Below, one piece after another: positions 8,855 through 33,043 of a DNA stretch of 50,545 bases. The DNA is taken from positions 1 to 50,545 of IMG/VR virus record IMGVR_UViG_3300003465_000010. One strand, written 5' to 3'. A program made the translations under genes and the position numbers. The notes beneath the pieces were generated by a model, which did no database searches, was not told the origin of the DNA, and was given only the letters and a program-made list of their open reading frames with translations. This stretch comes from a virus. Its lineage: Duplodnaviria > Caudoviricetes. Numbering within the stretch: the first letter of the stretch is position 1; every line of letters starts with the position of its first letter.

Positions 8855-10894
8855 TTACGCTTGCACGCCTAAGAAGCGCGCTTGAGTGTTTGCAGTGACT
8901 CCGTCGGGACAATAGAATTCAAACATAGCAATCTTGCCCGCTGCGACGGTAGCAGGTAGGGCCGTGCCGATGGTGTTGGTGACCAAGTTAGCGTTCCAGG
9001 TGATAGCATTACCATCTCCCACCAAACGCAGCATCACAATGTTCCCTTCCACCGCGTTAAGAACGTTGATCGTCACCGTACCAGCCTGCGTCAGCTTCTG
9101 AGTCTCGATCCCACCGAGGTCGATGTTGACGGTGGCGGCGAAGGTGAGGGTGGTGTGGGTGGTTCGTTTCCGAACCCGACGAGTGGTGCCAGCTAACACG
9201 AGAGAACCGGCAGTATTACCTAACGTCCTCTGCAACGTTCCACCATCGTAACGATCAAAAAGGTTCCCAGACTGGTCCTCCATCGTGATGGTGTCAGTGA
9301 CGGCCGTATTCACCCGTACAATGATCTTCTGCACCCCTGAAGTTGATTGAACCGTTAAGGGGGTTAAAGCCGTGATCGGAGCAGCCGTGCCGCCAGGATT
9401 CCCGAAGAACTCTCCAGTCACCGTTGTGCCAATATTCACCAACGTGCTGCCCGTGTTACCCTGAGTTCCGTAAACGTTGATGTTGAGAGCGTTATTGACG
9501 ACTTGGATACCGAAGGTGGTGCCATCTTTGATCACCGTATTGGCAATGGTGACGTATTGTGCGAAGGTGTTGAAGAATGGGTCGCCAGCGTCGGTTTCAT
9601 GTTGGACAAGAATACCAGCAGTGCCGGTTTCAATACAGACATTACCTGTGACGGTGATGTGTTCACACTGCCCTCTAAGATGAATACCACGATCACCCCA
9701 TTTAATCACGTTCCCCGTGATCGACGTATGCCGTCCGCCCTTGATGAACAGACTGTACGTTGTGCCTGACGTAGCGCGATTGTAGAGAGTGATTTCGTTG
9801 TGGTCGATGATGGCGCCGGTGCAGAGAGTGAAGAAACTAAAAGCATTGATTGGACGTTCACAGGTGCCGCCGTAGAATTTATTGTGAGCAACGACGGCAT
9901 TATGACCAAACCATTCGATGGCAGTCCTCATACACTTGAGGTAACCGTCGGTGTCGGCAACACCCGCTCCCAACACCGTACCAGACTCGATCTCATTATT
10001 GATCGCACGAAAGCCGGAGCACTGCATCTTGAGTCCGCGCCATCCCCACCATTTAATATAGCAGCGAGTGATTACAGCGGCGTGGTTCGGCACGAGATCG
10101 AGGTCCACGTTCTGGAACACGATCGCATCACAGTCGATTTTCTTGTTATCCGCCTCGTTGTTGATGAATCGACAGTCGTCGATAACAATGTCGATGCAAG
10201 CGTCCGAAGCTGTCGAGACGGACGGGAAAGGTGCCGCAAGGATTCCGCGAGAGGCACGTCCCACACCGCCGAGATAGTGTTTAATACCCTCCCACGCGAT
10301 GTTGAGGAAGTCGCAGGTAAGGATTCGGCCGTGTTGGCAAGCGCGGGTGAGGCGGATACCGACAGCGGTAGCGGAACCTGTGGAGGCCGTGTTGGTTGGA
10401 TCGTTCACTTGTGTTACCCTCGCATTGACGAACGAGCAGCGAAGAAACATCCAATACGTTGATGCCTCGACCAATGTTATAATCTGCTGAATCTTCTCAT
10501 CACCATCGAAGGTGACCCCCTCGATGCGGGATTTGTAGAGGGAGACAGTGAGCCAGGCTGTGCCAGTAGCACCGGCCTTCAATGTGCCGTTACCGAATAG
10601 ATTCACCTGATTGAGGGTCAACGTCACACCGGGATTGATGTAATACGTTCCATCGGCGATACAGACGGCTGTTCCTACAGGTGCTTCCCTCACCGCTCTC
10701 TGCAACGCCTCCGTAGAATCGTGGCCGTCCCTCGCACCGAAGTCACGGATGTCTACCCACCCACCGAAAGACCGCATCTCCGGTGTGCCGTCCTCCCGAT
10801 TAAACCCGAGGATGGCACCCTTCCGAACCTCCACCGGGACGGTTGCTGTATCCAACCCAGCGAAGTCGTTGAGGAACGCGACGTCTACTTTCAC
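8855..10894 (-). CDS. Tailspike with pectate-lyase-like beta-helix (depolymerase)
   Basis: VDIRDFGARDGHDSTEALQRAV...IADGTYYI N-terminal motif and repeated ITGN/HN beta-helix rungs. Confidence 0.8.
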   Translation of the reverse strand: MKVDVAFLNDFAGLDTATVPVEVRKGAILGFNREDGTPEMRSFGGWVDIRDFGARDGHDSTEALQRAVREAPVGTAVCIADGTYYINPGVTLTLNQVNLFGNGTLKAGATGTAWLTVSLYKSRIEGVTFDGDEKIQQIITLVEASTYWMFLRCSFVNARVTQVNDPTNTASTGSATAVGIRLTRACQHGRILTCDFLNIAWEGIKHYLGGVGRASRGILAAPFPSVSTASDACIDIVIDDCRFINNEADNKKIDCDAIVFQNVDLDLVPNHAAVITRCYIKWWGWRGLKMQCSGFRAINNEIESGTVLGAGVADTDGYLKCMRTAIEWFGHNAVVAHNKFYGGTCERPINAFSFFTLCTGAIIDHNEITLYNRATSGTTYSLFIKGGRHTSITGNVIKWGDRGIHLRGQCEHITVTGNVCIETGTAGILVQHETDAGDPFFNTFAQYVTIANTVIKDGTTFGIQVVNNALNINVYGTQGNTGSTLVNIGTTVTGEFFGNPGGTAAPITALTPLTVQSTSGVQKIIVRVNTAVTDTITMEDQSGNLFDRYDGGTLQRTLGNTAGSLVLAGTTRRVRKRTTHTTLTFAATVNIDLGGIETQKLTQAGTVTINVLNAVEGNIVMLRLVGDGNAITWNANLVTNTIGTALPATVAAGKIAMFEFYCPDGVTANTQARFLGVQA

Positions 10895-12405
10895 AGCGTT
10901 GAGAGATTGAGACTAAGATCACCCTCCCACGAATTTCCGGCAATCACCGGATCAGGGATCGGACCACTATCCGCGACGTCCATTGGGAGGTAGATGGGTT
11001 TGTCATAGACAGAACGGTAGAAATTCTCCATTGCGTGGTCGTCTTTGTCGACTGGTTTATTCTCCTTCTCATCCCAACAGTAGCGTTGGATTTCCCAGAG
11101 AAACCGCCGGCACTGACACATTACAAAAATCTGTTGCTCGCTCCGGTTAACCTTGCCCCTCTCCAAGGCTTCCTGTGTTAGCACAATTCCACCGGCTAGG
11201 TCTTTGTGCGCTTTCTCTACAAACAAACCGTTTGATATCAACTCATCCCCGAAGGTGGTGCCTTCCAGCACCGGGTGCTCGATGAAGGCGGACGGGTCGA
11301 TACAGGTGCGGATGACCCGCATTCCCTTCGTACGGTTCTTCACCAACTGCGCCAAAGCCTCCGCACCAAGGTGCTGAAATTCGTCGATGAAGTAGTACCA
11401 GTGGCCCTGAGGACTCACAGCGAGGCCGAGAACATGGTGAGGAGTTTGAGGGTGAAAGTCGATGTAGATGTAAACGGGCCAATCTTCTGGCGGTGTTCGG
11501 AGGTCCTTCCACCCTTTAGGAGGTTCGGTGAGAACGTGCCGGCGATAGTCGAATTGTTTGTATATAAGACCCGACAGATGTAAGGGGATTCCGTACAAAC
11601 GGCATTGTTTCTCGTCCTCAGAAAGCTCCGCTTCATACACCGCGATGGCCTCTTTCGTAAGGTAAGGGTTGTCGAATATAGACCCTTGAACGGACCAAAC
11701 ATGCTCAGGACGTACAAGCTCCGCGCCAGTAAGATCGCGGGGGAAGAACAGATCGTTAATCCACGCCTCCCGGAGAGGAGTGAGAGTGAACCAGGCTGCG
11801 CCATTACGGTCAATAAGACCGCGAGAAGCAGCCTTCCACATTTGTTGAGGGATGGGTTCATCGACGTGGATGAAGTCCCAATCTGACGACTCAGCACTTT
11901 GCTGGTCGTTCATGAACGACTTCACCGTATCAAAGCGGAGAATACTCCCATTCGCGCACTCAATAATCGACGTCACCCCGTTGTGGTTCTTCCTTGTACT
12001 CGTGACAAAACCCTTTGGCAGAAACTTCCACAACTTTCCTTCCCCACCACCGCGAGTGGATGTGAAGACTTCGTCAACCTTATCCCAGTCAGTTGTAATA
12101 ACGAGCCCCTTAACACGATGCTGAGGAATACCTCCCCGTCGGGCGCTGTGACTTTCAGGATACCACGGACGCTCCCCGAGAAGCCAGGCACAGTCTTCAG
12201 CACAACCAACAGTGGACTTCCCTGAGCGGTTACCAGCGCGATACATTCTCCTCGAATGCTTGACGCCAGCTTGGTGGAAGTCGTCCTGCTTCGGGTGCGG
12301 TTTGTAGAAAGCGAGACCATTTCTCTCCGCCGCAGCGATTAGTTTCCTCGTTGCTTCCAACTTCCTTCTCAGGAGGAGCACATGTTCGGGATCGAAATCA
12401 CTCAT
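10891..12405 (-). CDS. terL: Terminase large subunit
   Basis: PHPKQ, Walker A AGNRSGKS, Walker B IHVDEP, FTLTP coupling motif, nuclease YIDFH and DKDDHAME. Confidence 0.93.
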   Translation of the reverse strand: MSDFDPEHVLLLRRKLEATRKLIAAAERNGLAFYKPHPKQDDFHQAGVKHSRRMYRAGNRSGKSTVGCAEDCAWLLGERPWYPESHSARRGGIPQHRVKGLVITTDWDKVDEVFTSTRGGGEGKLWKFLPKGFVTSTRKNHNGVTSIIECANGSILRFDTVKSFMNDQQSAESSDWDFIHVDEPIPQQMWKAASRGLIDRNGAAWFTLTPLREAWINDLFFPRDLTGAELVRPEHVWSVQGSIFDNPYLTKEAIAVYEAELSEDEKQCRLYGIPLHLSGLIYKQFDYRRHVLTEPPKGWKDLRTPPEDWPVYIYIDFHPQTPHHVLGLAVSPQGHWYYFIDEFQHLGAEALAQLVKNRTKGMRVIRTCIDPSAFIEHPVLEGTTFGDELISNGLFVEKAHKDLAGGIVLTQEALERGKVNRSEQQIFVMCQCRRFLWEIQRYCWDEKENKPVDKDDHAMENFYRSVYDKPIYLPMDVADSGPIPDPVIAGNSWEGDLSLNLSTL

Positions 12406-12979: not shown

Positions 12980-13624
12980 TTAGTTTGTACTCCCGACACC
13001 AAGACCGCGTCGCTTCAGTTCGGCCTCCGCGGCAGCGAGTTCGTTTTGGAGTTCGGCGACGTCCGTGGATTGGATTGTAGTCTTCACCTCCGACTCAACC
13101 TTCTGCGTAGGCTTCCCAAGGAACCGATCTAAGAGGGCGTTCGCCGCGGCGAGCTGGACATTCTGCTGCTTTGCCTCATCACGGAGTTCGATGAGTTTGT
13201 AGACGGAGTCCTCAGCAGCGGCGGTGATGACGGTTTCGATAGCATCACGGCCACTCGCTTGCATTTCCTCCGCAATACGCTTTCGAGCCCAAGGTTGGCG
13301 GAGGACTTGGGAAACCCAAGGTTCGCTTTTGTCGGTGCGTAGAGCGATCTCCCTGTTGCTCAACCCCTGTGCTTTTAGATAGCACATCAGACGGTGAGTT
13401 GCGTTCTCGCTTTGAATCATCATCGTTGGCGTCTTGGCGTTGAAGAAGTCGTCTTTGACGTCCGGTTGGATTGCCTGAAGTTCGGGGTTATTCTTCCACG
13501 CTTGTTTGTTATCGACGTACTTCAACTCATCCGGCTTCGCACGATGGTCCGCCGACGTCATCCGGAAGGCCGAATGCTGGTCGCTGACGGGGATCAAGTC
13601 GGAAATGTCAACTTCATCACTCAT
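12980..13624 (-). CDS. terS: Putative terminase small subunit
   Basis: HTH (GLSNREIALRTDKSEPWVSQVL), QLAAANALLDRFLGKP motif, first gene of the late operon upstream of terL. Confidence 0.7.
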   Translation of the reverse strand: MSDEVDISDLIPVSDQHSAFRMTSADHRAKPDELKYVDNKQAWKNNPELQAIQPDVKDDFFNAKTPTMMIQSENATHRLMCYLKAQGLSNREIALRTDKSEPWVSQVLRQPWARKRIAEEMQASGRDAIETVITAAAEDSVYKLIELRDEAKQQNVQLAAANALLDRFLGKPTQKVESEVKTTIQSTDVAELQNELAAAEAELKRRGLGVGSTN

Positions 13625-13717
13625 CTTGTTTCACTGACTCCTCGTAATGCCTCCGAACGGTATCCGTCACGGGGATCGTTGTGGGGAGGGAGCCGTCGAG
13701 AACCTCAAGAAGAAACG

Positions 13718-13890
13718 ACCCCTTTTCCTTCCGGTCATCGGGTCCTAGTTCATCCATCGGGGATCACCCTATCAACCCTCCGGCCAAAGACGACCCTTAT
13801 CTTAGGGTCGAGAGACTATCGGGTCTTCCCGCAGAAGGGTCATCGGGGATTTGACCCCTTTCTCCAAGGGTCCTAAGCCAAAAGGGTCTT
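13718..13890. repeat. Cluster of short (AA)GGGTC/GACCC repeats
   Basis: About 9 copies in both orientations in non-coding DNA upstream of terS. Confidence 0.6.
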
Positions 13891-14054
13891 TAGTTTTTTC
13901 TCACCTGGGAAAGTTTAAATTCCGAAACCACGTGGAGCGGGGATATAGCTAATGTTCATCCCCTCGCGGGGAAGGTATCCCCGCCTTGATAACCTCGTAA
14001 TCTCCGGGCGAAGCCCGCTAATTCCCCCGTCCGGAGCGAAGCGTGAGGACCGGC

Positions 14055-14087
14055 AAAAATTGCCCACCCCGAACTAACGGAGTGGGC
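14055..14087 (-). terminator. Intrinsic terminator of the 14105-14455 gene
   Basis: GCCCACTCCG-ttagtt-CGGGGTGGGC stem followed by aaTTTTT on the minus strand. Confidence 0.75.
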
Positions 14088-14104
14088 TTGCTGCTCGTGG
14101 CCGA

Positions 14105-14455
14105 TCAAAGACCAGCGATGAGGGACGCGGCTTTGTTGCTGCGCTTGTTGGTCTCCGCCGGGGGCGTGATCACCTTATGTGTAACCATCGTCTGCCGGAG
14201 AGCGGAGGGGTTGGTGAGCAGATGCGCGCCAATCTCAAACTCCGCATCAGCGGCGTCATACAGCGGCGTCTTATCCGGCGCGTCGTCTTCGTCGATTGTA
14301 ACGAGGGCGTCGTGATAGGCCTTCGCCATCGCGAGCAGAACGGCGTCAGAATCCGCTTGCAGCCAATTTGATTTGCCGTTCATTTGCAGCCGGGCGGTCA
14401 TGGCGACCTTCCTTGCGCCTGAGAGCTGCGCTTTGATGTCTTCGATTTTGAGCAT
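14105..14455 (-). CDS. Hypothetical early protein (stand-alone transcription unit)
   Basis: 116 aa with its own promoter and terminator. Confidence 0.75.
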   Translation of the reverse strand: MLKIEDIKAQLSGARKVAMTARLQMNGKSNWLQADSDAVLLAMAKAYHDALVTIDEDDAPDKTPLYDAADAEFEIGAHLLTNPSALRQTMVTHKVITPPAETNKRSNKAASLIAGL

Positions 14456-14479
14456 ATATGATTCTATCCTATCGGCTGC

Positions 14480-14497
14480 TTTCGCGTTCTTGCGAAG
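14480..14497. promoter_or_regulatory. Palindromic operator (downstream of P1)
   Basis: TTTCGC-gttctt-GCGAAG. Confidence 0.6.
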
Positions 14498-14518
14498 ATG
14501 TCAGCCATCAGCACAAAG

Positions 14519-14535
14519 AGCTAGAATCATGCCAG
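14519..14535 (-). promoter_or_regulatory. sigma54-type promoter P1
   Basis: CTGGCATGATTCTAGCT: GG-N10-GC, -24/-12 consensus; 63 nt upstream of the 14455 start. Confidence 0.65.
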
Positions 14536-14542
14536 GATAACC

Positions 14543-14560
14543 TTTCGCATTTTTGCGAAA
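14543..14560. promoter_or_regulatory. Palindromic operator (upstream of P1)
   Basis: TTTCGC-attttt-GCGAAA, 7 nt from the promoter element. Confidence 0.7.
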
Positions 14561-14574
14561 GCCTCCGAAAGCCA

Positions 14575-14982
14575 AGGGTCCACCTCGCTAGGTGAATCAT
14601 AGACATTCTGGAGATTCCTTGGTTCATATTAGCCTCTAATATCCGCATCCGCTCATGCGTCCGTGCATTCGTGCGTGCGTTCCCCTCCCACCCTCTCTGC
14701 CGGAATAAGGGTCAAAGGGTCATTGCGATATTCTCACAAAGCCATTGCCTATATACCAGCGTAGAGACCCTCCTCTGTGTGTATATAATTTTTTTGATTT
14801 CCAATACTACTTTAGTTGGTATGGTTAGGGAGATTGGATTACACCGGGATAGAGGCAATGACCCATATTCCCGGATCGCCAGAGGCCGGGATCATAGCGC
14901 ACGTTGACACGCACGCACGTATGGGATGAAGGGTCATAAAGCACAAGGGTCATTGGGTCGAAGGGAATAAGGGTCATTGGGA
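14575..14982. repeat. AAGGGTC(AT) repeats and large imperfect inverted repeat around an AT-rich core (origin/packaging candidate)
   Basis: About 9 GGGTC/GACCC copies; CGTGCGTGCGT 14670-14680 vs ACGCACGCACG 14909-14919; AT-rich core about 14780-14815. Confidence 0.55.
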
Positions 14983-14988
14983 AATTCC

Positions 14989-15007
14989 GTGAGCATTAGA
15001 GAATAAT
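14989..15007 (-). promoter_or_regulatory. ATTA-N-CTAAT-GCTCAC motif copy
   Basis: Minus strand ATTATtctCTAATGCTCAC. Confidence 0.5.
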
Positions 15008-15128
15008 AGGGACCGGCGCACAAGGGAGCGTACCCGGCCCCTTGTCGCGTGAAGGGATCGAACGGGCCGAAGGCAGAGTTGACGCCTTGGAGGCCCAGGT
15101 TGTAGTATTCCATCGGCTCGTTCGCAAG

Positions 15129-15146
15129 TTTCTCAACCCTGAGAAT
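15129..15146. promoter_or_regulatory. Palindromic operator (upstream of P2)
   Basis: TTTCTC-aaccct-GAGAAT, 6 nt from the promoter element. Confidence 0.65.
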
Positions 15147-15152
15147 GGAGGA

Positions 15153-15169
15153 TTGGCATGGGATTTGCT
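15153..15169 (+). promoter_or_regulatory. sigma54-type promoter P2
   Basis: TTGGCATGGGATTTGCT, near-consensus YTGGCACG-N4-TTGCW, upstream of the first rightward gene. Confidence 0.75.
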
Positions 15170-15181
15170 GGAGTCAGGGAG

Positions 15182-15199
15182 ATTCGCGATGATGCGAAT
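15182..15199. promoter_or_regulatory. Palindromic operator (downstream of P2)
   Basis: ATTCGC-gatgat-GCGAAT. Confidence 0.7.
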
Positions 15200-15224
15200 T
15201 TAGTTTAGTGGGAAGGATGAACTT

Positions 15225-15485
15225 ATGGTATTAAAGATCGAGTATACAACAGATTCCAAAGGATACTCTTTGGTTTCGGACTTAGACATCAACATCGAGC
15301 CCGATGCAGAGGCGGTTGGGTATGCTGCGGCCATGTTTGCATCATGTGCTGCGTTGTTTGAAACACTGATGAACAAGGCCGATCCGAAGTATAGGGAGAG
15401 GTTAATGCACGGCTTCAACAAAGGTCTCTCCGAGGCGCGGCAGAACGAAATCTGGCCGTTTGATTCATTCATGGTGAAGAACTAA
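15225..15485 (+). CDS. Hypothetical early protein
   Basis: 86 aa, GGAAGGA upstream. Confidence 0.7.
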   Translation: MVLKIEYTTDSKGYSLVSDLDINIEPDAEAVGYAAAMFASCAALFETLMNKADPKYRERLMHGFNKGLSEARQNEIWPFDSFMVKN

Positions 15486-15514
15486 CCACCCATCAGCGGC
15501 ATCTCTCCACCGCT

Positions 15515-15785
15515 GATGCGATGGTTGGTTAAACAATGGAAGGATATTATGATCACAAAAAACGACCTAGAAACGCAGTATAGGAAAGGGGTTATCACCG
15601 CCACCGAGAAGGAGATTAAGTTCCTCGTCTTGGACGGGCTGATTTCGCAACAACGCGCGAATGAGTTGTATGAGGTTCTCGTGCAAGAATACGCTCCGCG
15701 GGAATACACTAACGAGCTATTCGCTCGCATTTCCAAACTCGCACAGGAGGGTTTGGATGCGATGGTTGGTTAAACAATGGAAGGA
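15515..15785 (+). repeat. 30-bp direct repeat (15515-15544 and 15756-15785)
   Basis: GATGCGATGGTTGGTTAAACAATGGAAGGA twice, each just before a start codon. Confidence 0.9.
15549..15773 (+). CDS. Hypothetical early protein
   Basis: MITKNDLETQ..., start after GGAAGGA. Confidence 0.7.
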   Translation: MITKNDLETQYRKGVITATEKEIKFLVLDGLISQQRANELYEVLVQEYAPREYTNELFARISKLAQEGLDAMVG

Positions 15786-15790
15786 ATGAT

Positions 15791-16042
15791 ATGAACACGA
15801 AAGTAACAAACGTCCACGTTCGAGAATTCGGCACCATTCAAGTCTCCTGGGAGGTTTCCGACACCCTCAAAGGCTTCTCGCATCGCCTGAGATGCGGTGA
15901 ACTCTACAGTGCTTGGTGCTGTTACGAACACCTAACCACCCTTCAAGTCGGCAAGCGAACATTCGCAGCAGGAACGCAGTATTGGTTGGGTTTTCTGCCG
16001 GTGGAAGAACCCTTCGAGATCGTAACAGGGAGGGAAGTGTGA
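15791..16042 (+). CDS. Hypothetical early protein
   Basis: 83 aa after the second repeat copy. Confidence 0.65.
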   Translation: MNTKVTNVHVREFGTIQVSWEVSDTLKGFSHRLRCGELYSAWCCYEHLTTLQVGKRTFAAGTQYWLGFLPVEEPFEIVTGREV

Positions 16043-16335
16043 ACGAAGAAAACAAACCGGCGGAGCGAAGCTCCGATGTTGCCTCTAACGAGGTTGACGC
16101 TTTTGAATGTTCGGATTGTCAAACAACACACCACGGAACTAAAGGTGTTTGTCCTGGTGCTGAACCTCACGATGTTGAGCGCGAACAAAGGATGGCTGAT
16201 GTCACGGCACCTGAATTCGTTGAAATCCAAATACGTTCAGATGAGAAGGTTGTTTGGGTGAACGTTGATGGCCGTTGCTTGTTTCGTGCCTGTCGTATTG
16301 GTAAGTTGATTATTAACGACGAGAGGGTTAAGTGA
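16039..16335 (+). CDS. Hypothetical protein
   Basis: GTGA coupling at both ends; CxxC...H...C. Confidence 0.6.
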   Translation: MNEENKPAERSSDVASNEVDAFECSDCQTTHHGTKGVCPGAEPHDVEREQRMADVTAPEFVEIQIRSDEKVVWVNVDGRCLFRACRIGKLIINDERVK

Positions 16336-16703
16336 ACATCTCCATCACCGAACACCGCTCCGCTCTCTGCCTTACCTTCGAGTGTCGCACCGGCACATTG
16401 CCATCCGTGGTTAAAGCACAACTCCTCGCGTGTTTTCTCTCCCACAACCTGAAAGACGTTGACGGGCCGCGTATTCTCACCAGAATGACTTCACCCGAAT
16501 ACGATACTAAGTCACCAACATCCAACTTCGTTTTCTTTCGAAGGAACGTGGCGGTGAGAGAATGGCCGTTCCCCTACGAAGACTACATCTACGCCACCGA
16601 ACTCGCACTCGAAAACCACTGCGAGATCGTCCGTTGCAACTTTATTATTCACTTACCTGAACCCGGAGAACCCTTTAAAGATTATGTCAACCCGCACAAG
16701 TAA
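16332..16703 (+). CDS. Hypothetical protein
   Basis: 123 aa coupled ORF. Confidence 0.6.
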   Translation: MNISITEHRSALCLTFECRTGTLPSVVKAQLLACFLSHNLKDVDGPRILTRMTSPEYDTKSPTSNFVFFRRNVAVREWPFPYEDYIYATELALENHCEIVRCNFIIHLPEPGEPFKDYVNPHK

Positions 16704-16797
16704 ACACATCTGCCTAGTCCTCGCCTTCGGCCTATTAGGCTGGTTGGTGATGATCACCCTTGTCTTTCTATTCACCACCGCGGAGAGTTTGTTATGA
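16684..16797 (+). CDS. Small single-TM protein (37 aa)
   Basis: MSTRTSKHICLVLAFGLLGWLVMITLVFLFTTAESLL; ATGA coupling to the next gene. Confidence 0.5.
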   Translation: MSTRTSKHICLVLAFGLLGWLVMITLVFLFTTAESLL

Positions 16798-17066
16798 GCA
16801 CCAACAACTCCCCGGTGCCGCAAAGCGGCCAAGTTTGTGAACACGTGCAACCAATCACCAACGGCCATCGAAACAACTTTCGTCTTTCATTCGACGAAGT
16901 TTGGCTTGACGGCAAGAGAGTCTACGTTGGTATCGACACGAAAGTCTTCGAACGATGGCTTGACTGGTGTAAGATAAGCAAACCTCACGTTCTCACCCTC
17001 ACACTCAACGACCAGCTCTGCGTCTTAGCTGGGCTGCGTGATGAAAATTCTCAACCTTGCGAATAA
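16794..17066 (+). CDS. Hypothetical protein
   Basis: 90 aa coupled ORF. Confidence 0.6.
   Translation: MSTNNSPVPQSGQVCEHVQPITNGHRNNFRLSFDEVWLDGKRVYVGIDTKVFERWLDWCKISKPHVLTLTLNDQLCVLAGLRDENSQPCE
17047..17064. promoter_or_regulatory. Palindromic operator (upstream of P3)
   Basis: ATTCTC-aacctt-GCGAAT, 6 nt from the promoter element. Confidence 0.65.
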
Positions 17067-17070
17067 AATC

Positions 17071-17087
17071 CTGGCATGCTTCCTGCT
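17071..17087 (+). promoter_or_regulatory. sigma54-type promoter P3
   Basis: CTGGCATGCTTCCTGCT, GG-N10-GC, in an intergenic gap. Confidence 0.7.
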
Positions 17088-17098
17088 TCTCAGGAGGT

Positions 17099-17116
17099 CC
17101 TCGCATGAATGCGAAA
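17099..17116. promoter_or_regulatory. Palindromic operator (downstream of P3)
   Basis: CCTCGC-atgaat-GCGAAA, overlapping the 17105 ATG. Confidence 0.55.
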
Positions 17117-17500
17117 AAACAACCCAGACCACCGGGACGATTACTCCCGATCGTGAGTGAGCCCGAGTCTCTCCCACGATCCTCGCTCGTTCCCCTCTAC
17201 TCCTCGATTATAGACTTCTTCGAGTGTAACAACATCACCGTTGGCCGTAATGAGGAGTGGAGACTAACAGAGCGCCTCCACGGCGAGATTCAAGGTCTCC
17301 CCGGCTCCCGTGGCTTCCTAACCGCCACCAACGGCATCCTCTGCTACGTCGAACAGCACTCCCGCCTATTCCTCGGCCACCTTCACTGGTTCGTGACAGA
17401 CAAAAATGAGCGTATTCACTTCAATCGTGAGACAAAAACGATTGAAGTCAAAACGACAAGAACATCAAAAATGACCGAAATGGTGAAAGACCTACTATGA
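17105..17500 (+). CDS. Hypothetical protein
   Basis: MNAKKQPR...MVKDLL; AGGAGG upstream. Confidence 0.65.
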   Translation: MNAKKQPRPPGRLLPIVSEPESLPRSSLVPLYSSIIDFFECNNITVGRNEEWRLTERLHGEIQGLPGSRGFLTATNGILCYVEQHSRLFLGHLHWFVTDKNERIHFNRETKTIEVKTTRTSKMTEMVKDLL

Positions 17501-17898
17501 AACTCGACTTCTCCAACGAAGCTCCCGTCTGGGTAGCCGCCCTCGTCCAAGCCGCCAAACTCGGCCAAGGATACGAGGAAGGTATGACCGAAACCAAAAG
17601 TGGCCCATCGGCCTTCGACCAGTTGCAGGATGTTGTTCGTGCCGTAATCACCAACCACACCGACTCCTCAAAACCTTCCTGCGACTGCGGCAACCCTCTC
17701 TGTTCCCTCACCCTCGCACGCGAAGGTCGCTGGCAGGAGTTGGCCGAATTACTCCTCGTCGCCAACCACATGCAAGCCTTCCTCATGGCCACCATGAAGA
17801 TCACCGACCCGAAGGTTTTACTCTCCTGCACAGGCTGTTTGATGGACATGATAGAGGCGGTGAGTGCTCAACCCAGCCAAACAGCGCACGCTGAATGA
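17497..17898 (+). CDS. Hypothetical protein (Cys-containing)
   Basis: 133 aa; CDCGNPLC and CTGC. Confidence 0.7.
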   Translation: MKLDFSNEAPVWVAALVQAAKLGQGYEEGMTETKSGPSAFDQLQDVVRAVITNHTDSSKPSCDCGNPLCSLTLAREGRWQELAELLLVANHMQAFLMATMKITDPKVLLSCTGCLMDMIEAVSAQPSQTAHAE

Positions 17899-17905
17899 CA
17901 TCTTT

Positions 17906-18140
17906 CCCACCAGCTTTGTCGCCGACCTATCTGCCGACAACAGTATGGTCAGAGCTGTGTGGGCGTTTTTGCACAGATAGTCCGCCGTTCGCTACGTGCT
18001 CATTGTCTGTGGTGTCCTGCCTGCCCGACAGGAAAGAGTGGGTGAAACTCCCACCTCGGGCAAATTTACCCTCCCCGTCTTTCACACCGACCACAAAGCA
18101 TAGGTGTTCTATCCTTCCGCGACGGGGAGGGTTTTGATTT
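17906..18140 (+). ncRNA. Candidate structured RNA (four consecutive stems, one tRNA-like)
   Basis: Stems at 17906-17963, 17972-18011, 18023-18061 and 18068-18132 (12-bp perfect) followed by a T-rich tail. Confidence 0.45.
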
Positions 18141-18141
18141 T

Positions 18142-18351
18142 ATGGACAACAACCTCGAAAAACTCGTAGCCCTATTAGAATCCGTTGCCGACAACGGACC
18201 AGCAGAAATCAAACTACACGCCATCGACAACTTCCAACAATTGCTGTGGCTTGGTAACAGCGACATGACACAACGAGACTTACCGCTCCGCGCACGTCGC
18301 ACTCTCGACCTTCTTCGTAATCTCAACGACTCTGTCATCATCCCGAAATAA
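18142..18351 (+). CDS. Hypothetical protein
   Basis: 69 aa helical. Confidence 0.65.
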   Translation: MDNNLEKLVALLESVADNGPAEIKLHAIDNFQQLLWLGNSDMTQRDLPLRARRTLDLLRNLNDSVIIPK

Positions 18352-18354
18352 CAT

Positions 18355-18600
18355 ATGCACGCAAAGCAAATACGATACAATCAACTCAAAAACACTCGCA
18401 ACGAGGAACTTCCCGGTCGTGTAAAGAACCCAAAGAAGTCCTCCAGCGCACGCCGTCCTCGCGACGACTCTTGGAAGCGTGGGACAGAAGTGAAATACAC
18501 CCCAAACCCACCCTACGTCGTCCGCCCGGACTCCCGCTACTGGCGTTCGCCCAATTTCGTCCCTCGCATCACCGCTTTTCGTATCATCACTTCCAACTAA
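18355..18600 (+). CDS. Basic hypothetical protein
   Basis: 81 aa Arg/Lys/Pro-rich; CATATG start context. Confidence 0.5.
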   Translation: MHAKQIRYNQLKNTRNEELPGRVKNPKKSSSARRPRDDSWKRGTEVKYTPNPPYVVRPDSRYWRSPNFVPRITAFRIITSN

Positions 18601-18698
18601 CAATCTCGATCTAAACGATCACCTCAGGTGCAGTGAGCTGAGGAAACCAAACCTTCTCACCGCGGGACAGGTGGACCCATATCCCACCGAACAAACAT

Positions 18699-19310
18699 AT
18701 GAAACAACATATAGCTGACTCACTCGGCTTCGACGTTATGGTCCAAGTGCCCGAAACGGTCGAAGAATTCGATTCACTCGCTGGTCGTTCCGGCGCATGT
18801 CTCGAAGAAGCCACTGACAACGTGATCTACCGCGGCGTCCTGGCTGAATTCCGTTCCAAACTCGTCGACGCTCTCGAAAAGGACACCTCCTTCCCGATCG
18901 AGCGTGAACAGAAGAAGAACGCGAAGGGTGAACCTCAATTCGACAAGGACCAGAAACCCATCCTGGTCGTCTCCGAATCCGAAGGTGCCTACAAGAAACG
19001 TCTTCAGGCCCACCTTGGCCTTGACGACGATGCCTTCGCGGCACGTTTCGCACCCCTCGCGCAGCAGGTGGCACAGGGTATCAAATTCGACCCGAAGGCC
19101 ACGGAACGCAAACCCAAGACTCCACCCAAAACCTACCTCGAAGCCGCCCGTTCCATCCTCGCCCAAGGTGGCACCTACGAGAAGGCCGCTGGGAAACTCG
19201 GCGCTGAACTCAACCGCGAAGTCCCCGCCACCGAAGAAGGTGTCGCCTTCGCCCTTCAGGAACGCGAAGCACGTCGCCGCGCCCAGGTGGTCGCCGACCT
19301 GGTGGCATAA
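18699..19310 (+). CDS. Hypothetical helical protein
   Basis: 203 aa with strongly biased codon usage. Confidence 0.8.
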   Translation: MKQHIADSLGFDVMVQVPETVEEFDSLAGRSGACLEEATDNVIYRGVLAEFRSKLVDALEKDTSFPIEREQKKNAKGEPQFDKDQKPILVVSESEGAYKKRLQAHLGLDDDAFAARFAPLAQQVAQGIKFDPKATERKPKTPPKTYLEAARSILAQGGTYEKAAGKLGAELNREVPATEEGVAFALQEREARRRAQVVADLVA

Positions 19311-19404
19311 ATCACGGTGGAGGACGTTTTCGGTCCCTGTGCATATTATATTCCATATGTCCTATGCTCAGGTGTCCTCCACCGCCTTTATTCCATCGGT
19401 TGAA

Positions 19405-19423
19405 ATTAGCCTCTAATCCTCAC
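19405..19423 (+). promoter_or_regulatory. ATTAG-cct-CTAAT-CCTCAC motif
   Basis: 9 nt upstream of the ATG at 19433. Confidence 0.65.
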
Positions 19424-19432
19424 CTCCAAAAC

Positions 19433-19699
19433 ATGGCAACTTTTTCCTTCAAAGGCAAACCCGACCAGCGTTGTAAGGGACAATCCTCCCTCTACGACCA
19501 CCTCCTCATCCTCGGCCCACTCACCGACCCCAAAATTGAACAATACGAGCTGGAGGGGAAGTATGGACCGGAGAGACAAAAAGCTGCAATCGAACGTCGC
19601 AAACTAGTCGAGGCGCAACAGAAGGTCCGGGAACAGAAAGCGAAGGCACGTGCAAAGACCGCCGAGTATCGTGCCGCAATGGTGAAAGACCTCCTATGA
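19433..19699 (+). CDS. Hypothetical basic coiled-coil protein
   Basis: MATFSFKGK...MVKDLL. Confidence 0.7.
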   Translation: MATFSFKGKPDQRCKGQSSLYDHLLILGPLTDPKIEQYELEGKYGPERQKAAIERRKLVEAQQKVREQKAKARAKTAEYRAAMVKDLL

Positions 19700-19917
19700 C
19701 CCTTGAAGACTCCTTTAACAAACAACTCCGTGAACAAATGTCGAAGAAGGACATTAAACCAAAAGAGTTGGCCGCAGCACTCAACGTCCCTGTCGGTGTC
19801 GTCTACATGGCGATGAAACGTTCTGGTTTTCATACCGCCTGGTCGATGGTGAGGTATGCGCGGGCAGTGGGATGTAGGGTGGAGGTGAAGTTGGTTCCGG
19901 AAAAGGAGAACAAATGA
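19696..19917 (+). CDS. XRE/Cro-like HTH transcriptional regulator
   Basis: QLREQMSKKDIKPKELAAALNVPVGVVY...YARAVGCRVEVKLVP. Confidence 0.75.
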   Translation: MTLEDSFNKQLREQMSKKDIKPKELAAALNVPVGVVYMAMKRSGFHTAWSMVRYARAVGCRVEVKLVPEKENK

Positions 19918-20096
19918 CCACCCCCACAGACCCCTGCCTCGCAACAACTGAAATAGAAAGCGGCGAGCCCGTGTCGCCGTGTCACAAGCCAAGGGGGCAT
20001 CAAGGGAACCACGAAGGATGGTGTTTAGGATCGCGCTGTAGGTGGTCTGATCTGCCACCCGCCCAATCCGACGAAAACCCAGCCGAAAAGATATGA
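19914..20096 (+). CDS. Small Cys/His protein
   Basis: C...CHKPRGHQGNH...W pattern; coupled ORF. Confidence 0.6.
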   Translation: MTTPTDPCLATTEIESGEPVSPCHKPRGHQGNHEGWCLGSRCRWSDLPPAQSDENPAEKI

Positions 20097-20815
20097 AGAT
20101 AACCGGCAAAGAGCATTACCTGCGATGCGTGCCTCAACCCAGCCGAAAAGGAGAACAAATGAGCGAACCGCAATGCCCTGGGCCAGAATGCAGTAAATGT
20201 AACGGCGAGTATTGCAGCGTCCACGGACCGAACCCGTGCAACTGCGATGTGATAGGTCGTCATGCAATAGAAAACTCAACGCCTCCCGCCATCCCCGAAA
20301 AATACCTCAGCCATCATATGAACGCTACTTGTATTCGCTGTGGAAACCCATTTGCGCCAACATCAAATGAGCAGGAATACTGCGTCCATTGTTCGCATGA
20401 ATTGCTTGGCAATGATTTAACAAATCCCCAACCAGAACCGCCGTCTGAGCGGGCGATCAAAGAACTAAAGGCCCTTCGCGCCGAAAACGAACGGCTGAAA
20501 GCGAAGGCTGAAAACATTCTTCAGAGCAACAACTTCAGATACTGCGTTCAGTTCTTAAAAAACGGCGGCGAGCGCGTTAGGGCGATTCGGCTCGTAATAG
20601 ATGCGGCAGGGCTCTCATTTATGGACGCGAAAAACTACGTCGAAAATCTGCACACGCCTTTGCCGGTTGTTGAGCGCGAAAAACCTAAGATCACCTGTCC
20701 GAGTTGCCGCACGGATTTTGACAACGACGACGAACGCTTAATTGTTGGCCTGTGTCCCGTCTGCGCTGAAATGTTGCCAGCCGAACTCAGCGCGATTCTA
20801 CAGAAAGGTCAATGA
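20093..20815 (+). CDS. Mosaic Zn-finger protein with ribosomal bL12 C-terminal-like domain
   Basis: Multiple CxxC pairs; RVRAIRLVIDAAGLSFMDAKNYVE. Confidence 0.65.
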   Translation: MKITGKEHYLRCVPQPSRKGEQMSEPQCPGPECSKCNGEYCSVHGPNPCNCDVIGRHAIENSTPPAIPEKYLSHHMNATCIRCGNPFAPTSNEQEYCVHCSHELLGNDLTNPQPEPPSERAIKELKALRAENERLKAKAENILQSNNFRYCVQFLKNGGERVRAIRLVIDAAGLSFMDAKNYVENLHTPLPVVEREKPKITCPSCRTDFDNDDERLIVGLCPVCAEMLPAELSAILQKGQ

Positions 20816-20985
20816 TGAAATACGAAGTAATTGATACACCAATGCGTCCGGCGCGATGGAAGGTAGAGAGCAAGGAATTTCCGGGGCGTAACAATTCATG
20901 GACCGAATACTTTTCGGATTTCATGGACGCTATACGGGAATGTAAACGGCGCAACTCGACCCCGATTCAACAGAAAGGGAAGTGA
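20812..20985 (+). CDS. Hypothetical protein (57 aa)
   Basis: MMKYEVIDTPMRPARWKVESKEF...; fills the gap, ATGA coupling. Confidence 0.6.
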   Translation: MMKYEVIDTPMRPARWKVESKEFPGRNNSWTEYFSDFMDAIRECKRRNSTPIQQKGK

Positions 20986-20989
20986 GGAT

Positions 20990-21487
20990 ATGAGCGAAAT
21001 TGTTAATGGTGTTTGTCATCTGTGCGGAACGCCGGTTCAAAAATTGTGTGAGGCTTCGATTGTCCGCTGTCAAAACTGTTGTCGCCTCTATGGCGATGGT
21101 CCGATGCCTTCCTTTTCCGCTGCGATGAAGGCTCAGATTCATTTTGCCCAATGTCATGCCGACGAATCCGAACTTCAGCGCAAAGCCTACCTGCAATTAC
21201 GAACAGAGAGAGACGCAGCGGAACAAAAAGCGAGAGAGTTGGAGGCGGAGCGAGATGAATGGAAACAGATTTGCGCCAACAGAGATCAAACTGTCAAACA
21301 GCAGGGCGACGAGTGGGTAAAACTTAAGACCGAGATCGACGCCCTCCGCGCCGAAAACGAACGCCTGAAAGAAAAGGCGGCGTGGGTGGATAGACCAGAT
21401 GTGCACGCGCAGGCGTGTCCCGCTTTTGGGTTTTACGGTGTCGGAAAAGTTCAAAACGAAAAATGTAACTGCAAACCGAAAGGATAA
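20990..21487 (+). CDS. Zn-ribbon plus coiled-coil protein
   Basis: CHLC...CQNC, long coiled coil, ALRAENERLK segment shared with the 20093 gene. Confidence 0.7.
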   Translation: MSEIVNGVCHLCGTPVQKLCEASIVRCQNCCRLYGDGPMPSFSAAMKAQIHFAQCHADESELQRKAYLQLRTERDAAEQKARELEAERDEWKQICANRDQTVKQQGDEWVKLKTEIDALRAENERLKEKAAWVDRPDVHAQACPAFGFYGVGKVQNEKCNCKPKG

Positions 21488-21489
21488 TT

Positions 21490-21720
21490 ATGCCCGGACC
21501 ATCAATGGCTGAAATTCACTACGCACAATGGAAGCGGAACGGTTCAAAGTCTGTGTATGCAGGCGAAATCTGGCACGCATTCAACCCCGGACAAGACAAG
21601 GTATTCCCAAAAAACTTCGTTAGCCGTCGTGCGAATGGAGAACTTGCTACTGTTGTAAACAGCAAAGAGGAACTGGTCGAAAACGCTAAGCTGTGCCAAG
21701 TCATACTTGCTTGGCAATAA
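21490..21720 (+). CDS. Hypothetical protein
   Basis: 76 aa. Confidence 0.6.
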   Translation: MPGPSMAEIHYAQWKRNGSKSVYAGEIWHAFNPGQDKVFPKNFVSRRANGELATVVNSKEELVENAKLCQVILAWQ

Positions 21721-21755
21721 AAAGCCGAACTCAGCGCGATTCTACAGAAAGGTCA

Positions 21756-21953
21756 ATGATTATGAACAAAGTGCTTCCAACTGTGTGCTGGGAATTGCCC
21801 AGCGATGATATTGAGATGTATTCAAAGTATTACTACCTCGGAACGTATTGCCGAAACTGTGGCAAGCACGACCAGTGTTACATAAAAAAAGGCGTTCTCG
21901 CTAAAGGATTGTCTCTCACATGCGAGAACTGTGGATGCGCTGTAAAACTTTGA
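21756..21953 (+). CDS. Zn-ribbon protein
   Basis: CRNC...CENC; start 21756 or 21762. Confidence 0.6.
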   Translation: MIMNKVLPTVCWELPSDDIEMYSKYYYLGTYCRNCGKHDQCYIKKGVLAKGLSLTCENCGCAVKL

Positions 21954-21980
21954 CCCCGATTCTACAGAAAAAAGACTCCT

Positions 21981-22526
21981 ATGCGTCCTGACCTGCAACT
22001 CCGTGCCGTCCACCGCTACATCCCCGCCATCGCCACGGTCCTCAACCGTTGGCCAGACGTCACCTCCTTCACTCCTCACATCTCCCCCGCCACCTTCTCT
22101 GCCCGTTTGCGTGACTCACTCCTCGCCATAGTCAAATACCACCAAAACGAAGTCAAAGACCTCATCGACGTTCCCAAACTCCTCACCATCTACGACGACA
22201 TCATTGTCTCCCACCGTGACGACAACACCATTCTCGTTGGTCCGAAGGAAAAGATCAAAACCTGGTCTAAGATGAACGAAGTTGTGGGCTGCGACGTCCT
22301 CGACATCCGCACCAAACACATCGACATCATCACCATCCCCGACGAGGACTACAAGGCCTTTCTCTCCGCCTGTGCTATCCTCTGCTCCCACCGCATCGAC
22401 AACTTCGCTAACGGCGTCCGCTTCGCGCACCTTACTGCCGAGCAAATCCAGACTTTAGAAGAGCTTCAGAACGTAAAAGACGTGACAGTTATACGTAATA
22501 ACGACGGCTCTTACGTAATGTTATGA
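21981..22526 (+). CDS. Hypothetical protein
   Basis: 181 aa, genome-typical codon usage. Confidence 0.75.
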   Translation: MRPDLQLRAVHRYIPAIATVLNRWPDVTSFTPHISPATFSARLRDSLLAIVKYHQNEVKDLIDVPKLLTIYDDIIVSHRDDNTILVGPKEKIKTWSKMNEVVGCDVLDIRTKHIDIITIPDEDYKAFLSACAILCSHRIDNFANGVRFAHLTAEQIQTLEELQNVKDVTVIRNNDGSYVML

Positions 22527-22538
22527 CGATAGAAACCT

Positions 22539-22943
22539 ATGCAAACCGTTCGCCCCTCAATCCACAACCCCTACGCCAACACTCCCGAAGACGACCTCAT
22601 CGCATTCCGTGCGAAGCTAAAGGCCGACGATCTTCGTGCTATACAAGCAATCTTCCCCGGCAAGTCCGGGGTTCTACAGGCCGTATTCAACACCCTCGTT
22701 AAACAAACAGCCGATTATGTCCGAAAACACCGATACACCTATCTCGAACGCACCACCGTCGAGGCCTACCTTTGTGCCCGACTCACCGATCCTGAATCTA
22801 ATCCACACTCCAGTGGACAAGATGACGGAGGAGGAACTACGCGCCCACGTCCAGAAGCTCAGGGAGATTCGGCAGACAAGCCAACTGGTCAAGTCAGTGA
22901 GCCCGAAAAGGTCGTCCGCAACAAGCGAGCTAAGAAAGGCTAA
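22539..22943 (+). CDS. Hypothetical protein
   Basis: 134 aa, folded N-terminal half and disordered tail. Confidence 0.65.
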   Translation: MQTVRPSIHNPYANTPEDDLIAFRAKLKADDLRAIQAIFPGKSGVLQAVFNTLVKQTADYVRKHRYTYLERTTVEAYLCARLTDPESNPHSSGQDDGGGTTRPRPEAQGDSADKPTGQVSEPEKVVRNKRAKKG

Positions 22944-22983
22944 AACGTCGGTACCGAAGATTGACGTGTCGGAGTTCTTATGA
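22717..22983 (+). CDS. Hypothetical protein overlapping the previous gene
   Basis: MSENTDTP...PVDKMTEEELRAHVQKLREIR...IDVSEFL; ATGA coupling to the next gene. Confidence 0.6.
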   Translation: MSENTDTPISNAPPSRPTFVPDSPILNLIHTPVDKMTEEELRAHVQKLREIRQTSQLVKSVSPKRSSATSELRKAKTSVPKIDVSEFL

Positions 22984-23102
22984 AGAAACTCGGAGAGTGG
23001 TGTGTTATCGTTTTCGCAGTACTACTGGTGGCTGCCATACTCGCCGCGGGTATCTACTACGAATACGTCAAATTCATGTTTTTTCTCAAAAACTCACAAT
23101 GA
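22980..23102 (+). CDS. Small single-TM protein (40 aa)
   Basis: MKKLGEWCVIVFAVLLVAAILAAGIYYEY...; coupled on both sides. Confidence 0.6.
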   Translation: MKKLGEWCVIVFAVLLVAAILAAGIYYEYVKFMFFLKNSQ

Positions 23103-23281
23103 ACCCCAACCTCGCCATACCATTCGCGGCGTGTTTATTCCTCGCCTTGTTCGGAGCACTGACCCTACTAGTGCAATACGGTGCAATCAAACATAATGGC
23201 TCAGGTCAATTCAAACCTGAATCCGCCTTCATGTTTTGTCTTGGTACAGCAGGTGCCATAACTCTCTGGTTAATACAATGA
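23099..23281 (+). CDS. Small two-TM protein (60 aa)
   Basis: MNPNLAIPFAACLFLALFGALTLL...; coupled. Confidence 0.6.
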   Translation: MNPNLAIPFAACLFLALFGALTLLVQYGAIKHNGSGQFKPESAFMFCLGTAGAITLWLIQ

Positions 23282-24321: not shown

Positions 24322-24322
24322 T

Positions 24323-24499
24323 ATGGACGGACGCACCCTTTTATTCAAACTCCACAACAAACTCGGAGACAAGTTAGATGACGCACACCGGCACCTCACC
24401 TTGTCCGATGACCGTTACGACGACATAGTCCACCGAACTGAGATGCGAATTTACAGCGACCTCCGCGAAATCATACAACAAATACTAGACGAATCATGA
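24323..24499 (+). CDS. Hypothetical protein (58 aa)
   Basis: MDGRTLLFKLHNKLGDKL...; fills the gap, coupled to the helicase. Confidence 0.6.
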   Translation: MDGRTLLFKLHNKLGDKLDDAHRHLTLSDDRYDDIVHRTEMRIYSDLREIIQQILDES

Positions 24500-26576: not shown

Positions 26577-26791
26577 TCCACGGCGCATACCAAGAGGACG
26601 ACCACTTCGAAGTTTATACTCGCCCAAACTCCCGCTGCTACGGCTGCGACCAAGACTTCTTCGATTGGGATACTATAACATGTTGGCAAGTTTCCGTCGC
26701 CTCCCCCAAACCTTTCGTCCGCTTCAACCTCTGCCCCAACTGCTATCCTGCGTGGGACGGAGATTACTACCACGGTCGACACGAAGACTAA
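26573..26791 (+). CDS. Small Zn-binding hypothetical protein
   Basis: CYGC...CPNC. Confidence 0.6.
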   Translation: MIHGAYQEDDHFEVYTRPNSRCYGCDQDFFDWDTITCWQVSVASPKPFVRFNLCPNCYPAWDGDYYHGRHED

Positions 26792-26860
26792 TTTCCCCTG
26801 AACTACTCAGGGAAAACGCTGGTATCGTCACTACCACTAAACAAACACATATCAACATAT

Positions 26861-27340: not shown

Positions 27341-27350
27341 TTACTAACAC

Positions 27351-27376
27351 AATGGGCATCTTCATCGGTGCCCATT
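27351..27376 (+). terminator. Hairpin after SSB
   Basis: AATGGGCATC-ttcatc-GGTGCCCATT. Confidence 0.45.
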
Positions 27377-27392: not shown

Positions 27393-27397
27393 AGAAA

Positions 27398-33039: not shown

Positions 33040-33043
33040 CCGC

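Follow-up and report, generated by a model that had tools for sequence, protein, structure and literature searches.

How might a phage without a recognizable transcriptional activator use promoters of a class that depends on one? The 50,545-bp virus record IMGVR_UViG_3300003465_000010 (Duplodnaviria; Caudoviricetes), which we analysed at its full length and refer to as the window, raises this question through three motifs of the -24/-12 type associated with the alternative sigma factor sigma54. Bacterial enhancer-binding proteins (bEBPs) are stated to be required at sigma54 promoters "without exception" (PMC4641369), and our searches found none in this genome. The gene directly after the third motif, here called gpX, encodes a small protein whose homologues are accompanied by similar motifs in many other phages. 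We rate the chances as roughly even that the three sites act as promoters of the host sigma54 class and form a module with gpX, which would then be a candidate non-AAA+ cofactor. The sites and the gene are as follows.

14519-14535, minus strand: site 1, CTGGCATGATTCTAGCT; one mismatch; matrix score 15.1; predicted transcription start at about 14508
15153-15169, plus strand: site 2, TTGGCATGGGATTTGCT; no mismatch; matrix score 18.9; predicted start at about 15180
17071-17087, plus strand: site 3, CTGGCATGCTTCCTGCT; one mismatch; matrix score 15.7; predicted start at about 17098
17105-17500, plus strand: gpX, encoding 131 amino acids (aa), the gene that follows site 3

A first-pass annotation of this DNA gave all three strings just as they stand in the sequence, with the GG-N10-GC spacing exact in each and the GG and GC set within the wider consensus, as sigma54 promoters have them. 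They fit the published pattern TGGCA(T/C)(G/A)nnnnTTGCA, as that is given in PMC11704786. When the pattern TGGCAYGNNNNTTGCW (TGGCAYG-N4-TTGCW) was searched on both strands of the window with at most one mismatch, these sites were the sole matches, three against a mean of 0.64 in dinucleotide shuffles. A scan with an RpoN matrix, which the annotation had suggested, singles out the same sites: with our own position matrix, written by hand from the sigma54 consensus and used with a match threshold of 14, the three top scores in the genome are 18.9, 15.7 and 15.1 (sites 2, 3 and 1, respectively), and the next is 11.9. In 100 shuffles, matches of at least 14 averaged 0.75, and the highest shuffle score was 18.7, below that of site 2.

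The placement of the motifs, outside genes and pointing at gene starts, also proved to be as the annotation described it. Sites 1 and 2 stand back to back in a 769-bp divergent non-coding gap (14456-15224), and site 3 lies within a 38-bp non-coding gap (17067-17104) before gpX. From the C of the -12 element to the same-strand ATG the distance is 65 nt for site 1 (ATG at 14455), 57 nt for site 2 (ATG at 15225) and 19 nt for site 3 (ATG at 17105), so that all three lie upstream of a gene and point toward it, as sigma54 promoters do, with a start codon 19 to 65 nt away. Site 1 is oriented toward a 116-aa gene and the packaging and structural arm (small terminase, large terminase, portal, capsid), and site 2 toward the first rightward, early gene. 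These results support the motifs as real, non-random, intergenic and correctly oriented. The observation made in the first-pass annotation is confirmed, and its interpretation, a lytic program gated by a host sigma54 signal or served by a non-canonical activator, is partly supported.

The annotation had seen no AAA+ activator in the genome, and profile searches agree. Six-frame searches of the phage genome with PF00158 and PF14532 at E <= 10 found no AAA+ enhancer-binding protein, and a control search with PF00158 was positive in 14 of 14 control genomes; the GAFTGA-bearing AAA+ activator expected with sigma54 promoters is not encoded by the phage by this measure. Six-frame searches likewise found neither sigma70 region 2 or 4 nor a sigma54 DNA-binding domain in the phage genome, and Pfam and PHROG scans recognized no regulator gene among 29 window proteins. 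PF00158 was also absent from all 10 gpX phage records searched (the window and sets of four and five others; eight of the ten are at least 92% complete).

The non-canonical activator that the annotation had left as an option now has a concrete candidate in gpX. Neither Pfam nor PHROG offers a match to the protein. A core of some 65 residues, WR..G.I.GLP...G.L..TNG....H..WF..D, is common to its homologues, and W52, G60, G70, T75, G77 and H92 of gpX are invariant. A profile search of 1.84 billion metagenomic cluster representatives places at least 627 clusters in the family at E <= 0.001; 317 family proteins reach E <= 1e-10, members are mostly about 100 aa long, and no Pfam family was found in any of 10 other members scanned. 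Two family members used as tblastn queries found no homologue in 50,697 GenBank phage records, and the family would seem to be known only from uncultured phages. An AlphaFold2 model built on a 77-sequence alignment has a confidently predicted, beta-rich core (predicted local distance difference test [pLDDT] score of 79.8, with residues 31-100 above 90). Foldseek comparison of this model with the PDB gave no match at E <= 0.001, the best being faint KOW/SH3-like barrels at E = 0.42; the best match in BFVD was an uncharacterised protein of an uncultured phage (E = 1.7e-3), and the ESM Atlas held no match above 0.80. With no AAA+ PF00158 domain and a predicted fold that is small and beta-rich, gpX does not qualify as a bEBP.

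What ties gpX to the motifs is their distribution in other phages. IMG/VR contains 61 loci whose large terminase shares 35-57% identity with the phage's own, and a profile search of whole records finds gpX in 7 of 44 large-terminase-related records; a broader gpX profile returned the same seven and one fragment at E = 0.003, which we discounted. The eight gpX records, window included (293 kb), hold 11 intergenic matches scoring at least 14, distributed over seven of the eight, and every one of the 11 adjoins gpX or sits in the divergent gap beside the gpX operon. (Window site 3 and the match at 13843 in G003 are counted as intergenic, though the crude gene caller put both inside open reading frames [ORFs] of doubtful start.) By comparison, 12 near-complete relatives lacking gpX (548 kb) have 14 coding and only 2 intergenic matches, in 2 of the 12 records, both within about 520 bp of a record end (records 97% and 91% complete). 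Seen from the side of the motifs, strong matches lie between the early genes and the small-terminase homologue in L006/L007, L008, L015, L022, L028, L032 and L040. When 19 window proteins were compared with the loci by tblastn, gpX homologues appeared within this subset in L006/L007, L015, L022, L028 and L040; the whole-record profile search added that of L008 and found none in the incomplete record of L032. L005, the sister of L007, has neither gpX nor sites, the region being covered. On the terminase tree the gpX label is scattered, with at least three changes of label forced by well-supported branches. The sites point away from gpX, toward the terminase side, in G009, G015, G019 and G004, and toward gpX in G030; in G003 and in the window there is one each way.

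The association extends to gpX loci that we gathered with gpX sub-alignments, blind to promoters. One of these, L127 (= G046; 92% complete), has no terminase of the window's family and no PF00158 domain; its four matches (15.4-18.7) are all on the gpX strand and no more than 3 kb upstream of the gene, three of them in intergenic DNA. Another nine gpX loci (85,025 bp) contain 14 matches of at least 14, compared with 1 for the reversed matrix and 2.5 expected at the rate of the relatives lacking gpX (Poisson P = 4e-7), and six of the nine have an intergenic match. Five of these new records are 96-100% complete; none of the five has PF00158, and two have the window's terminase family. A terminase search of the new records leaves G046, G348, G349 and G352 without that family. 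Pooled, an intergenic match is present in 15 of 19 gpX-bearing records or loci versus 2 of 12 without gpX (Fisher P = 0.001). L130 (6.8 kb), which has no match of at least 14, and three other short metagenome contigs were too small and were left out of the 19. A count of 7-mers needs no matrix at all: in the 3.5 kb upstream of gpX in 16 loci, relative to the rest, TGGCATG, GGCATGG and GCATGGC rank at the top after homopolymers, beside CACGCAC.

In the window, each of sites 1 to 3 is further bracketed by two 16-bp dyads of the form TTCKCA-N4-TGMGAA.

14544-14559: dyad O1-up, TTCGCATTTTTGCGAA; no mismatch; 8 nt upstream of site 1, its centre 31.5 nt from the C of the -12 element
14481-14496: dyad O1-down, TTCGCGTTCTTGCGAA; one mismatch; at about +12 to +27 of the predicted site-1 transcript
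15130-15145: dyad O2-up, TTCTCAACCCTGAGAA; perfectly palindromic; 7 nt before site 2
15183-15198: dyad O2-down, TTCGCGATGATGCGAA; one mismatch; at about +4 to +19 of the predicted site-2 transcript
17048-17063: dyad O3-up, TTCTCAACCTTGCGAA; one mismatch; 7 nt before site 3, within the final part of the preceding gene
17100-17115: dyad O3-down, CTCGCATGAATGCGAA; one mismatch; overlapping the gpX start codon

The whole genome has nine matches to TTCGCA-N4-TGCGAA with up to two mismatches, compared with 3.0 expected (none of 100 shuffles reaches nine), and the six best are exactly these flanking pairs. The upstream dyads end 7-8 nt before the motif, with centres about 31 nt before the C of the -12 element and about 43 nt before the predicted start, and the downstream dyads span about +3 to +27 of the predicted transcripts. 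An arrangement of dyad, core and dyad would be the layout of a promoter under a dimeric DNA-binding protein, and the dyads probably bind a dimeric regulator. The dyad sequences vary among phages, and the core motif is constant. In G046 the dyad TGTCC-N7-GGACA has three exact copies, each 11-53 nt upstream of one intergenic site, and L146 has a single copy, 32 nt before a site. Measured from the middle of the dyad to the C of the -12 element, the distances are 30.5, 30.5 and 31.5 in the window, 33, 52 and 75 in G046 and 54 in L146. Their steps of about 21-22 bp hint at dependence on the face of the helix; seven cases make this suggestive at most.

The units that the sites appear to serve contain several further elements.

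14105-14455, minus strand: the 116-aa gene, first downstream of site 1; no Pfam match and only a weak PHROG match of unknown function
14062-14087, minus strand: terminator-like hairpin of 10 pairs (8 G-C) with a T run, directly after the 116-aa gene
15079-15108, plus strand: sigma70-like promoter candidate, TTGACG-18-TAGTAT, matching 9 of 12 consensus positions; a consensus match only
14707-14985: AAGGGTCAT / GGGTCATTG repeats, clustered some 180-230 bp upstream of sites 1 and 2

No homologue of the 116-aa gene was found by tblastn in the relatives' loci, and it occurs in this phage only. In the site-1 unit, the genes for packaging and structure come only after this gene and the hairpin. The description of all three sites as early promoters does not suit site 1, whose arm is that of packaging and structure and whose first gene is followed by a terminator-like hairpin. 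Nor need sigma54 be the sole route into the early genes, since the sigma70-like promoter candidate lies 45 bp upstream of site 2. The repeats number 22, compared with 10.7 expected (none of 100 shuffles reaches 22), with a second AAGGGTCAT cluster at 13790-13890; the clusters could be distal activator (enhancer) sites or replication iterons. Enhancers of sigma54 promoters usually lie 80-150 bp upstream. In the window the dyads are instead beside the core, and these GGGTCAT repeats are some 180-230 bp upstream, at sites 1 and 2 only.

From these observations (the motifs with their rarity and placement, the dyads, the lack of a bEBP gene and the co-occurrence with gpX), we infer sigma54 dependence, the transcription starts and any activity of gpX. 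Across differing terminases, dyads and gpX sub-families the core motif is the sole constant, and it matches the sigma54 type in sequence, spacing, direction and flank, so that host sigma54-polymerase would be the simplest account. Likewise, because no AAA+ activator was found in the searched gpX phages and the sites track gpX, we take gpX to be functionally tied to the promoters. Most likely, then, host RNA polymerase with sigma54 would read sites 1 to 3 as working -24/-12 core promoters. Each would be part of a composite element, with one dyad about 31 nt upstream of the C of the -12 element and a second over the first 20-30 transcribed bases, to which a dimeric regulator probably binds. Site 1 would drive the leftward unit, that is, the 116-aa gene, the terminator and then the packaging and structural genes, and sites 2 and 3 the small rightward genes, gpX included. 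It is most plausible that gpX is a phage-made factor that lets sigma54-polymerase fire or modulates its firing. A more specific and distinctly tentative proposal, which we think probably wrong as it stands, is that gpX typifies a widespread family of small non-ATPase activators of sigma54-polymerase at phage -24/-12 promoters, with no AAA+ protein needed. Such a protein might act by relieving the block that sigma54 places on DNA melting, perhaps aided by a dyad-bound partner beside the promoter.

Were this true, gpX would provide the first natural case in which sigma54 transcription is activated by something other than an AAA+ ATPase. Our literature search, which covered neither subscription journals nor supplementary files, found no description of a small non-ATPase phage protein tied to sigma54 promoters. 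A functional link would offer a handle on viral takeover of the sigma54 enzyme and on whether its ATPase requirement has a natural bypass, and a functional gpX might find use in synthetic biology as a compact, orthogonal switch. Even with a non-functional link, this would be only the second kind of phage for which we could find sigma54-type promoters in print.

A number of results weigh against a sigma54 module that includes gpX. The presence of sigma54 in the host is presumed. gpX has no detectable similarity to any transcription factor. Upstream dyads about 43 nt before the start are not in the classical enhancer location. The first-pass annotation had a start near 17098 driving the next gene; this start would fall just after AGGAGG (17092-17097), and the site-3 transcript would thus be stripped of the gpX ribosome-binding site. 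Sites in other phages were found with our hand-written matrix, so their agreement at matrix positions holds by construction. Four gpX-bearing records or loci (G032, L137, L138 and L144) have no intergenic match. G045 has its 17.3 match inside a 102-aa opposite-strand ORF of the crude gene caller and was scored positive on a second, weaker intergenic match, and without it the count would be 14 of 19. The co-occurring records include kin, G015 and G019 being near-identical and L141, L142 and L143 sharing one core sequence. The clustering of the gpX label on the terminase tree is about that of shuffled labels (54 of 500 shuffles are as low). Most broadly, the strict pattern occurs at background rate across large-terminase relatives (17 in 840 kb), and in 44 dereplicated loci the matrix finds 6 intergenic and 23 coding matches where the reversed matrix finds 5 and 13. 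There is no general intergenic enrichment of the motif in these relatives, many of which manage without the sites. Conservation in related phages, one of the checks proposed in the annotation, is not found for large-terminase relatives in general; the motif recurs in gpX-bearing records.

In a rival account, the main reading of the first-pass annotation, a host enhancer-binding protein would fire the sites as it does any ordinary sigma54 promoter, which would tie phage expression to a host signal. gpX would then be an unrelated early gene, or an accessory that, for example, shifts core polymerase from sigma70 to sigma54, and the host activator would bind at the GGGTCAT repeats or at the dyads. 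The cores do fit the sigma54 consensus, repeats are present about 180-230 bp upstream of sites 1 and 2, gpX is unlike any activator, and the bEBP requirement is said to be without exception (PMC4641369). We nonetheless consider this account unlikely: it leaves unexplained why the motifs track gpX across groups without the window's terminase family, no repeat cluster lies upstream of site 3, and the variation of the dyads among phages would call for several host activators.

A further account dispenses with sigma54. The motif would be the recognition site of a phage-encoded factor, either gpX itself, regulating its own neighbourhood in a sequence-specific way, or a small sigma-like specificity subunit, and the likeness of the motif to sigma54 promoters would be coincidence or mimicry. 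A regulator gene beside its own sites is common, and the motifs lie within about 3 kb of gpX; TTGGCATG alone, with no GC at -12, recurs near the sites in L007 and L008; and position -15, T-rich in classical sigma54 promoters, is A in 6, C in 4 and T in 5 of 15 sites. Against this, about 11 positions and an exact spacing reproduce the sigma54 pattern, together with a flank outside the matrix, where the pyrimidine that the extended sigma54 consensus wants before TGGCA is found in 25 of 27 collected sites. The sites are also directional and always gene-facing, the core motif stays the same while gpX sub-families and dyads vary among phages, and the window encodes no sigma70-family domain. An extended -10 promoter of the sigma70 type (TGn plus a TATAAT-like hexamer) is a good fit to just two of the 27 sites, both of them in L140, and the bases after TGC in sites 1 to 3 are not TATAAT-like. 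We therefore doubt this account as well. That the motifs are chance matches in a 50-kb genome, selected from very many windows, is hardly credible. At least three strict matches do arise in 4 of 100 shuffles, and the scan spans many windows, but chance would not explain why all three sites are intergenic and gene-facing, have flanking dyads in common, include one that outscores every shuffle and recur as a motif beside gpX homologues in other phages.

To our knowledge, phages almost never use the sigma54 promoter class. The first-pass annotation had called such use unusual, and rare it is, but there is a precedent in Pseudomonas phage YuA, which has a sigma54-like promoter whose start, mapped by ONT-cappable-seq, agrees with an earlier promoter trap (PMC10914365). 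The likeness lies in a virulent phage with a -24/-12-type promoter beside sigma70-type and phage-specific ones, as that report's account of YuA has it (PMC10914365). In contrast to the three sites of the present phage, one sigma54-like promoter is named there, and the portions of that report dealing with it describe no flanking dyads (PMC10914365). YuA shows no sign of a gpX module in that the GenBank phage records searched are gpX-negative, its inclusion among them by name being unconfirmed.

Classical sigma54 systems with AAA+ bEBPs (NtrC, PspF, NifA) share with this phage the core pattern, the spacing and upstream dyads, and TGTCC-N7-GGACA of G046 and L146 resembles what we take to be the TGT-N10-ACA site type of bEBP systems. 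They differ in that the phage encodes no PF00158 or PF14532 AAA+ protein, in that its dyads adjoin the core rather than lying 80-150 bp away, and in that a second dyad covers the transcript start. T4 late transcription (gp55/gp33/gp45) offers the parallel of a phage without its own polymerase in which small proteins steer the host core enzyme to unusual promoters, as outlined in PMC2988020. T4, however, brings the sigma-like gp55 and a single -10-like element, whereas the promoters of the present phage look like those used by an alternative sigma factor of the host, and no similarity of gpX to gp55, gp33 or solved structures was detected. A phage protein already proposed to act on sigma54-polymerase is Htm (Gp204 of Mosigvirus AV110; 10.64898/2026.10.06.757011). 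As presented in that report, Htm is AAA+ ATPase-like, has neither GAFTGA nor a DNA-binding domain and acts on host genes (10.64898/2026.10.06.757011); the gpX family, by contrast, is about 100 aa long and beta-rich, shows no ATPase fold in the model and adjoins phage promoters.

The window is a complete record, with 99-bp direct terminal repeats and 52% G+C, and its genes are laid out in three blocks. The leftward block runs from 14455 down to 1 and then across the ends into 50504-34295. Its packaging genes are as follows.

12980-13624, leftward block: small-terminase-like gene
10891-12405, leftward block: large terminase

The first stretch of this block also encodes a beta-helix protein and an SU10-type portal, and the stretch at 50504-34295 an SU10-type capsid protein and proteins of 1192 and 1817 aa. 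The 1817-aa protein (34295-39748) lies at the end of the virion arm, and its residues 1230-1691 match only PHROGs of unknown function; it was considered as a virion RNA polymerase, a candidate that was dropped because it matched neither solved polymerases nor other solved structures. The rightward block, from 15225 to 34359, opens with many small genes lacking a functional annotation and continues with a PD-(D/E)XK nuclease, a UvrD-type helicase, a ParB-methylase, a ligase, a fusion of uracil-DNA glycosylase and PolA and a DUF3987 protein.

A megablast search with 13000-19000 gave no nucleotide match to GenBank phages, and the closest isolate by large terminase, at 24.5% identity, is no near relative. 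Neither tRNA genes nor Rfam families at gathering score were found in the phage genome. A search of species genomes with the large-terminase profile gave a sole match, a 3.9-kb contig binned with a Binatia metagenome-assembled genome; gpX was found neither in that genome nor in 301 searched genomes of the same phylum.

Several smaller features of the neighbourhood are recorded here. Words of the GGGTC/GACCC type are dense at 13720-13900, in and around the 157-bp gap that separates the small-terminase-like gene from the terminator after the 116-aa gene; this cluster may act in late regulation, as a packaging signal or as an origin of replication. Inverted CGTG/CACG runs, GTGCGTGCG at 14661-14680 and CACGCACGCACG at 14905-14924, flank the centre of the divergent gap, and the word CACGCAC ranks with the 7-mers most enriched upstream of gpX, where 8 of 16 loci have it. 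At 15515-15544 and 15756-15785, a direct repeat of 30 nt without mismatch, GATGCGATGGTTGGTTAAACAATGGAAGGA, extends across the stop codon and ribosome-binding region of two consecutive small early genes, with a third, weaker copy at 16399-16415.

In other phages, the late-facing site in L022 (6246-6340) and L028 (5863-5960), which correspond to G015 and G019, is followed by more than 400 nt without an ORF, including a conserved GTCGGTAAGTCGGT stretch, perhaps a long leader or a non-coding RNA; downstream of this site, L028 has two TCCGCA-N2-TGCGGA dyads. In several phages the GC at -12 is only 13-20 nt before an ATG (L008 795-822; L127 2863-2895 and 4328-4364), so that the predicted transcripts would be leaderless or nearly so.

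Within the rightward replication block of the window, a single 890-aa ORF (30367-33039) joins a domain of the uracil-DNA-glycosylase superfamily to the domains of a 3'-5' exonuclease and a family A DNA polymerase. The same block contains minus-strand ORFs of 165, 48 and 79 aa at 25851-26782, and among them, on the minus strand at 26507-26522, lies a weak TGGCATG-bearing match with a score of 11.9.

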